From Escherichia coli (GTDB lineage: Bacteria; Pseudomonadota; Gammaproteobacteria; Enterobacterales; Enterobacteriaceae), in NCBI RefSeq assembly GCF_048403405.1, contig NZ_CP183129.1: 64,000 bases of DNA; one strand, written 5' to 3'. Under the pieces are notes generated by a model. That model was not told where the DNA came from, ran no database searches, and was given only the letters and a program-made list of their open reading frames with translations. A program made the position numbers and the translations under genes. Position 1 is the first letter of the stretch. Each line of letters begins with the position of its first letter. Shown piece by piece: positions 169 to 245 of this stretch.

Positions 169-245
169 TGGTTGCGGGGGCCGGATTTGAACCGACGACC
201 TTCGGGTTATGAGCCCGACGAGCTACCAAGCTGCTCCACCCCGCG
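169..245 (-). tRNA. metV: Initiator tRNA-fMet (CAU anticodon), promoter-distal copy; carries a U instead of C at about position 17 (D-loop) relative to the other two copies
   Basis: Reverse complement reads CGCGGGGUGGAGCAGCUUGGUAGCUCGUCGGGCUCAUAACCCGAAGGUCGUCGGUUCAAAUCCGGCCCCCGCAACCA, 77 nt with encoded CCA; matches E. coli tRNA-fMet except one base (plus 229 is a, others g). Gene name by position in operon. Confidence 0.9.

Follow-up and report, generated by a model that had tools for sequence, protein, structure and literature searches.

The metV gene, the third of the three initiator tRNA genes of the metZWV operon, has U in place of C at D-loop position 17 in the Escherichia coli genome studied here, and the change is probably a recent deamination-hotspot transition at a Dcm site that is expected to be functionally neutral. 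The analysis covered a stretch of 64,000 nt (contig NZ_CP183129.1, assembly GCF_048403405.1), referred to below as the window. The Dcm context, which an earlier note on this DNA had missed, would be the feature that explains the variant. metV U17 is probably a real feature of this genome and an ordinary, neutral polymorphism, and it defines no new kind of tRNA or system.

Three tRNA-Met(CAT) genes were detected by ARAGORN on the minus strand (Table 1), all with the anticodon cat at position 35 (CAU), and each of these initiator genes scored 61.4 bits against the Rfam tRNA model. They have C1 opposite A72, a 1-72 pair that Rfam marks as non-canonical, and position 1 of the tRNA is unpaired in the predicted fold. 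The anticodon stem shows the run of three G-C pairs (G29-31 : C39-41) as CGGGCUCAUAACCCG in 3/3 copies, and the CCA end is encoded by the genes. According to PMC3017606 and PMC5389676, what sets the bacterial initiator apart is its formylation, governed by the acceptor end, together with these three G-C pairs. The identity of tRNA-fMet2 was considered for the window copies and rejected, because metY is distinguished by the variable-loop change G46A and all three copies have G46. The tandem adjoins mltA, which starts at 675 on the plus strand, and is transcribed away from it, with the amiC side opposite according to the annotation of K-12 and of strain TUM14771. The annotated gene order in K-12 is mltA, metZ, metW, metV, amiC, so that the copy next to mltA is metZ and the far copy, at 169-245, is metV.

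In a three-way alignment of the genes, 76 of the 77 columns are invariant, and the sole difference is column 17, where metV has T and the other two copies have C. The D-loop comprises 9 nt (A14, G15, C16, C/U17, U17a, G18, G19, U20, A21), so the linear position 17 is also the canonical position 17. The alignment and the K-12 synteny thus bear out what the earlier note had read from the letters: that one initiator copy differs at plus-strand position 229 (a instead of g), that its other 76 nt match those of the remaining copies, that the result is U for C at about position 17 of the D-loop, and that the variant gene is the promoter-distal one. Its term "isoacceptor" was wrong, since a tRNA with the same anticodon and a different body is an isodecoder. 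Upstream of metZ, a -10-like hexamer, TATAGT, was recognized by eye as the reverse complement of 480-485, and the leader region matches the metZWV knockout primer of PMC3017606. A promoter/terminator consensus scan of positions 1-700, with hairpin loops limited to 3-8 nt, returned no site.

Table 1. Coordinates of the metZWV operon and of the variant site in the window.
Feature	Position	Strand	Basis and details
Probable terminator after metV	117..150	-	Read from sequence; hairpin AACCGCAAT, 11-nt loop, ATTGCGGTT, then T-run
metV, promoter-distal third tRNA-fMet gene, U17	169..245	-	ARAGORN, Rfam, alignment, K-12 synteny; D-loop AGCUUGGUA
Lost Dcm site	226..230	.	CCAAG on plus strand, CTTGG on tRNA strand; CCWGG found at 337 and 447, not at 226
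Variant base, plus-strand A (G in other copies), tRNA C17->U	229..229	-	Alignment
metW-metV spacer, 34 nt	246..279	-	Locus comparison; polymorphic in E. coli (32, 33 or 34 nt)
metW, canonical tRNA-fMet1	280..356	-	ARAGORN, alignment; Dcm site intact (CCAGG) at 337-341
metZ-metW spacer, 33 nt	357..389	-	Same in every locus examined
metZ, promoter-proximal canonical tRNA-fMet1	390..466	-	ARAGORN, alignment; Dcm site intact (CCAGG) at 447-451
Leader and putative operon promoter	467..510	-	Read from sequence

The wild-type D-loop DNA reads C16-C17-T17a-G18-G19 on the tRNA-sense strand, which is CCTGG (CCAGG on the plus strand). The base mutated in metV is the inner C of this CCWGG site, and the product in the window has the form CTWGG. 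Dcm methylates the second C of CCWGG (PMC4924334), deamination of the resulting 5-methylcytosine produces a CTWGG/CCWGG T:G mismatch that is the substrate of Vsr (PMC2715241; PMC4924334), and C->T rates at CCWGG sites are high in strains without vsr (PMC2715241). Position 17 corresponds to the inner C that Dcm methylates in such a site, so deamination would be expected to leave CTTGG, and the variant is probably a recurrent hotspot event. The operon is transcribed at a very high level, and C17 lies on its non-transcribed strand. Beletskii and Bhagwat reportedly found in 1996 that C->T mutation becomes more frequent with transcription on the strand that is not transcribed. In the proposed origin of the allele, Dcm would methylate position 17, the inner C of CCTGG on the non-transcribed, tRNA-sense strand; the 5-methylcytosine would deaminate to thymine; and the T:G mismatch would be missed by very-short-patch repair through Vsr, leaving CTTGG at the site. 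Methylation of the site in this strain, and deamination as the cause, are what the sequence context suggests.

A 20-kb query against complete genomes returned five that tied at a near-perfect score, including TUM14771, 4621, MS 69-1 and TUM1226. The base-by-base comparison was made with one of these neighbours, TUM14771, whose bit score the four others share. The window and TUM14771 differ at two of the first 20,000 bases, 229 and 15251, and 229 is the only difference within 15 kb; over the first 43.4 kb there are six SNPs, and divergence sets in with the CRISPR array. Each of the three initiator genes of TUM14771 has C17, with spacers, flanks and island junction as in the window, and its mltA is identical to that of the window. 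Since near-identical relatives carry C17, the metV change is recent in this lineage.

The frequency of the allele was measured in 5426 complete E. coli genomes with 30-nt queries, designed such that each 28-nt megablast word spans the tested base and only exact carriers are returned. A 95-nt query located 21,175 tRNA-fMet places in these genomes, with a median of 4 per genome. The comparison of alleles that the earlier note had proposed thereby places an identical variant in many strains, an outcome of the kind that the note had listed as refuting: C17U was found at 126 places in 124 genomes (~2%). Changes at the neighbouring bases were scarce, with C16U at 6 places in 6 genomes, U17a->C at 2 places in 2 genomes, and G18A, in which the Dcm C of the other strand is deaminated, at 1 place in 1 genome. 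As a semi-quantitative estimate, these neighbouring changes are 20 to 100 times rarer than C17U, the figures being counts of genomes and not of independent events. G18 is universally conserved, so the scarcity of G18A reflects selection and not the mutation rate. At position 17 itself, the 30-mer query for C17G had no carriers in the 5426 genomes, and C17A was present at 103 places in 83 genomes, among them Nissle 1917, CFT073, ATCC 25922, clone D and similar strains; the C17A carriers appear to be one uropathogenic/probiotic lineage. Some of the public U17 calls could be nanopore errors at Dcm motifs (cf. PMC6591954). As a separate observation, ETEC H10407 (NC_017633.1 3711256-3711285) and its duplicate record SEC470 have C16U in a tRNA-fMet gene, at a coordinate far from the usual metZWV neighbourhood.

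Flank-specific 30-mers assigned U17 to metZ in 25 genomes and to a gene that follows an inter-tRNA spacer, that is metW or metV, in 85; the other 16 U17 places include metY (DLI.6n, 90-3040, 1919D62) and, in AR_0017, a metV whose spacer is a variant one. Sixteen loci were inspected directly, which placed U17 in metV of PM7, ECNB21-M121, DLI.6n, 7/2, AR_0015, A25, ST69, 8178 and AR_0017, and in metW of C5, AUSMDU00014361 and MP1. The 3' flank is of three kinds, amiC, a sugar-metabolism island or a T6SS island; over the sampled loci, metV-U17 was seen with 8 different pairings of spacer and flank, and metW-U17 with 3. Altogether, the allele is found in four gene copies and at least 13 local contexts, and the mltA genes of carriers are up to 26 of 1098 nt apart. 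A25 and MP1 have mltA genes that differ by 1 nt, and they carry the change in different copies (metV and metW, respectively). Judged from these contexts, U17 arose many times, in all four genes metZ, metW, metV and metY. A single U17 copy is present in 122/124 carrier genomes. Identity-band queries of 87 nt and 95 nt could not place the variant copy, with almost no genome at 100%; they were uninformative because the spacer (32, 33 or 34 nt) and the 3' flank are polymorphic.

The D-loop of an unrelated tRNA provides a replicate of the change. proK (tRNA-Pro CGG) and proL share the CCTGG D-loop GCAGCCTGGTAGC, and the CCTGG->CTTGG allele of proK was found in 11 genomes of diverse serotypes. Per gene copy, the frequency is ~0.2% for proK, a single-copy gene, and ~0.6% for tRNA-fMet, and the neighbouring tRNA-fMet changes that are not Dcm products reach at most 0.03%. 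This replicate supports a mutation bias of the motif over an effect specific to the initiator, and the hotspot mechanism would account for its reappearance in all four initiator genes as well as in a further tRNA gene that shares this D-loop. One genome, AUSMDU00014361 (NZ_CP045827.1), has CCTGG->CTTGG in both metW (locus L011, 2943-3019) and proK (194574-194603). About 0.25 such genomes would be expected by chance, and the double change could be a coincidence or could come from weak VSP repair or from assembly errors at Dcm motifs.

Base 229 may still be a residual sequencing artefact. It lies inside a Dcm motif and within a repeat of ~110 bp period, and a nanopore-type basecalling error could have escaped polishing in the triple tandem repeat. 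ONT basecallers erred systematically at CCAGG/CCTGG, with ~70% of consensus errors falling in Dcm motifs (PMC6591954), and the closest genomes have G at 229. However, pervasive errors of this kind in the window are not supported: among its 218 CCWGG sites, none coincides with any of the other five SNPs that separate the window from TUM14771, so that 1/6 SNPs is at CCWGG and the assembly is not broadly hit by Dcm errors. Unique flank begins 61 nt from 229 and is therefore reachable by short reads. Moreover, U17 is common to near-identical independent assemblies (for example 7/2 and AR_0015; three isolates of 8178), and its occurrence as a resident base in other species shows that, in general terms, it is a genuine biological allele. 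We consider an artefact at this base unlikely.

A second explanation is that U17 was imported, either by gene conversion from another copy such as metY or from a different strain by recombination over a very short tract. With four identical genes, conversion would not mark the flanks; DLI.6n has U17 in both metV and metY, and A17 in two adjacent copies of ATCC 25922 shows that conversion between copies takes place. The evidence from the window and the survey nevertheless makes import quite improbable here. No flanking SNP relative to TUM14771 lies within 15 kb of 229, and only 2/124 carrier genomes have two U17 copies. A heteroduplex T:G at CTWGG/CCWGG is corrected to C by Vsr (PMC2715241), which disfavours the spread of U17, and any donor allele would still trace back to the same hotspot mutation.

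The cloverleaf and the energy predicted for C17 and U17 are the same (-30.3 kcal/mol), and residues 17 and 17a occupy insert columns of the general tRNA model of Rfam, the score of which is unchanged by U17. Position 17 would lie in the variable pocket of the D-loop, where a change is expected to keep the cloverleaf and every initiator identity element. To search beyond E. coli, the 38-mer that spans the D-arm and the anticodon arm with U17 was scanned for exact matches in one genome per species, and other species contributed at least 120 matching loci. The hits listed include Vibrio, Aliivibrio, Photobacterium, Haemophilus and other Pasteurellaceae, Photorhabdus, Xenorhabdus, Providencia and Shewanella, as well as Gilliamella, Methylococcales, Clostridia and Bacilli. 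Among the matches listed, at least 45 gene copies equal the window metV over positions 1-74; all copies are U17 in the operons of Providencia vermicola (2/2) and Vibrio variabilis (3/3), and C17 and U17 are mixed in operons of Photorhabdus, Xenorhabdus, Enterobacter sp. Ag1 and Vibrio hannami. Identity with resident genes elsewhere means that the RNA of metV serves as initiator in other bacteria. By analogy with these native U17 initiators, the U17 tRNA would be expected to be charged by MetRS, formylated by Fmt and bound in the P site.

The level of initiator tRNA in E. coli tracks gene copy number, and strains without metY or without metZWV are viable (PMC3017606); with such copy-number redundancy, a weak defect in one copy would be buffered. 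Three wild-type copies would be left here, metZ and metW in the window and metY elsewhere. Expression, aminoacylation, formylation and use of the U17 tRNA would accordingly be normal, and a phenotype that could be measured is not expected. Neutrality is thus the predicted outcome for U17. The earlier note had offered either a neutral strain polymorphism or a functional variant. The first fits, in that the allele is absent from the nearest relatives, occurs in 124/5426 genomes, lies in a permissive loop and is native in other species; no supporting evidence was found for the second.

A functional isodecoder under selection would require that U17, perhaps once converted to D17, alters the dynamics of the D-loop/T-loop elbow or initiation in a way that is beneficial in some niche, as has been proposed for the A46 isoform of K-12 metY. 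DusB is the enzyme that makes D17 in tRNAs of E. coli (PMC5814906), and by analogy U17 may become dihydrouridine through it. U17 does recur, is retained in small clades and has become fixed in certain other species, and a preprint speculates that A17, at the same position, is advantageous (10.64898/2026.04.16.719103). However, U17 is nearly always confined to one copy, in any of four genes (122/124 genomes), and has swept no major lineage. Recurrence is limited to the deamination product, since C17G was seen in no genome and C17A seems to belong to a single clade, and the same change in proK, an unrelated tRNA, points to mutation bias. The initiator identity elements, as given in PMC5389676, do not involve position 17. 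Selection for a specialised U17 tRNA is therefore very unlikely. Still more doubtful, and very improbable, is that Dcm and Vsr drive a reversible toggle at position 17 that continually yields a second isodecoder, U17 or possibly D17 after DusB, kept at low frequency by selection and not by drift; if true, this tRNA would have properties of its own, for instance in how flexible its elbow is, in how it performs in the cold or under stress, or in how accurately it initiates.

The preferred reading, a neutral transition at a Dcm hotspot, can be set against known systems. The K-12 metZWV operon has the same mltA synteny, three tandem 77-nt genes, 33-nt metZ-metW spacer and leader as the window, and the window copies metW and metZ are identical to the K-12 genes. 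The window differs from K-12 in having metV U17 and a metW-metV spacer of 34 nt instead of 33. In K-12, metY encodes tRNA-fMet2 (A46), a natural initiator isodecoder that differs by a single nucleotide, beside tRNA-fMet1 (PMC3017606). The change in metV is the textbook change of the Dcm/Vsr hotspots, from CCWGG to CTWGG at the inner C (PMC2715241; PMC4924334), and here it recurs at the homologous site of several genes. Genetic work in lacI and cI defined the classical hotspots, whereas the evidence here is comparative and concerns a tRNA gene in which selection filters the product that is seen. In Vibrio, Photorhabdus, Xenorhabdus, Providencia, Shewanella and others, U17 is the resident sequence of the initiator or one of several resident sequences, while in E. 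coli it is a minority allele.

Another allele for comparison is A17, at the same D-loop position of a metZWV gene in Nissle 1917, CFT073 and ATCC 25922. A 2026 preprint reports A17 in metW of Nissle 1917 and speculates on a selective advantage (10.64898/2026.04.16.719103). We considered whether this published A17 was a strand-confused report of U17 and rejected this, as A17 is a real, separate allele in 83 genomes and the window has T. A17 results from a C->A transversion and is no deamination product, in contrast to U17, which is the expected one. A17 is also apparently inherited in one lineage, often in two copies, whereas U17 is sporadic, occurs in many backgrounds and is nearly always single-copy. 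Two A17 copies are present in 20/83 A17 genomes; in ATCC 25922 they are the adjacent metW and metZ (locus L019, 1155-1231 and 1265-1341), an arrangement that indicates gene conversion between tandem initiator genes. The occurrence of A17 in pairs and of U17 singly could fit Vsr correction of T:G toward C, and could equally result from clonal history. The U17 allele in E. coli was not found described in the literature.

The variant is of little biological import: it is a single base in a standard initiator gene, upwards of 100 public E. coli genomes already have it, and it is native elsewhere. When tandem tRNA genes differ by one base at the inner C of CCWGG, the first reading should be Dcm deamination or a nanopore error at the Dcm motif, and not a specialised tRNA. 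Position 17 of the E. coli initiator is permissive, with C, U and A all natural, which is relevant to the engineering of orthogonal initiator tRNAs. The recurrence of U17 also serves as a modest natural readout of mutagenesis at 5-methylcytosine where genes are highly transcribed.

Downstream of the metV CCA end, positions 1-168 of the window are the end of an island, whereas K-12 has the amiC intergenic region there. The island genes encode a phosphoglycerate dehydrogenase, a KpsF/GutQ isomerase and a MalY/PatB protein, with an additional PTS EIIC subunit in A25. In other strains the metV junction is occupied by a T6SS island with tssB/C/K or by amiC, and metV is a documented island insertion site, as in PAI-metV of CFT073 (PMC3573123). 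In the locus comparison, each 3' flank type has its own terminator hairpin. A link between U17 and the island 3' of metV was considered and rejected, because TUM14771 has the same junction with C17 and U17 occurs on all three flank types. The metW-metV spacer varies in length through changes in its T-run and also has C/T substitutions, and the metZ-metW spacer is identical in 14/14 operons examined.

Elsewhere in the window, a type I-E CRISPR array of 13 repeats (GTGTTCCCCGCGCCAGCGGGGATAAACCG, 61-nt period) extends over 43271-44030, and two degenerate repeats follow further on, at 44533-44628. The array was missed by Tandem Repeats Finder and was found by a separate repeat search. Its spacers differ from those of TUM14771 from 43422 onward, and the window from 43000 to 64000 is 99.6% identical to TUM14771, with 56 mismatches and 20 gap openings in 21 kb. 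This pattern suggests a recombination boundary near the CRISPR array. In the matching region of TUM14771, cas3 and ygcR are annotated as frameshifted.
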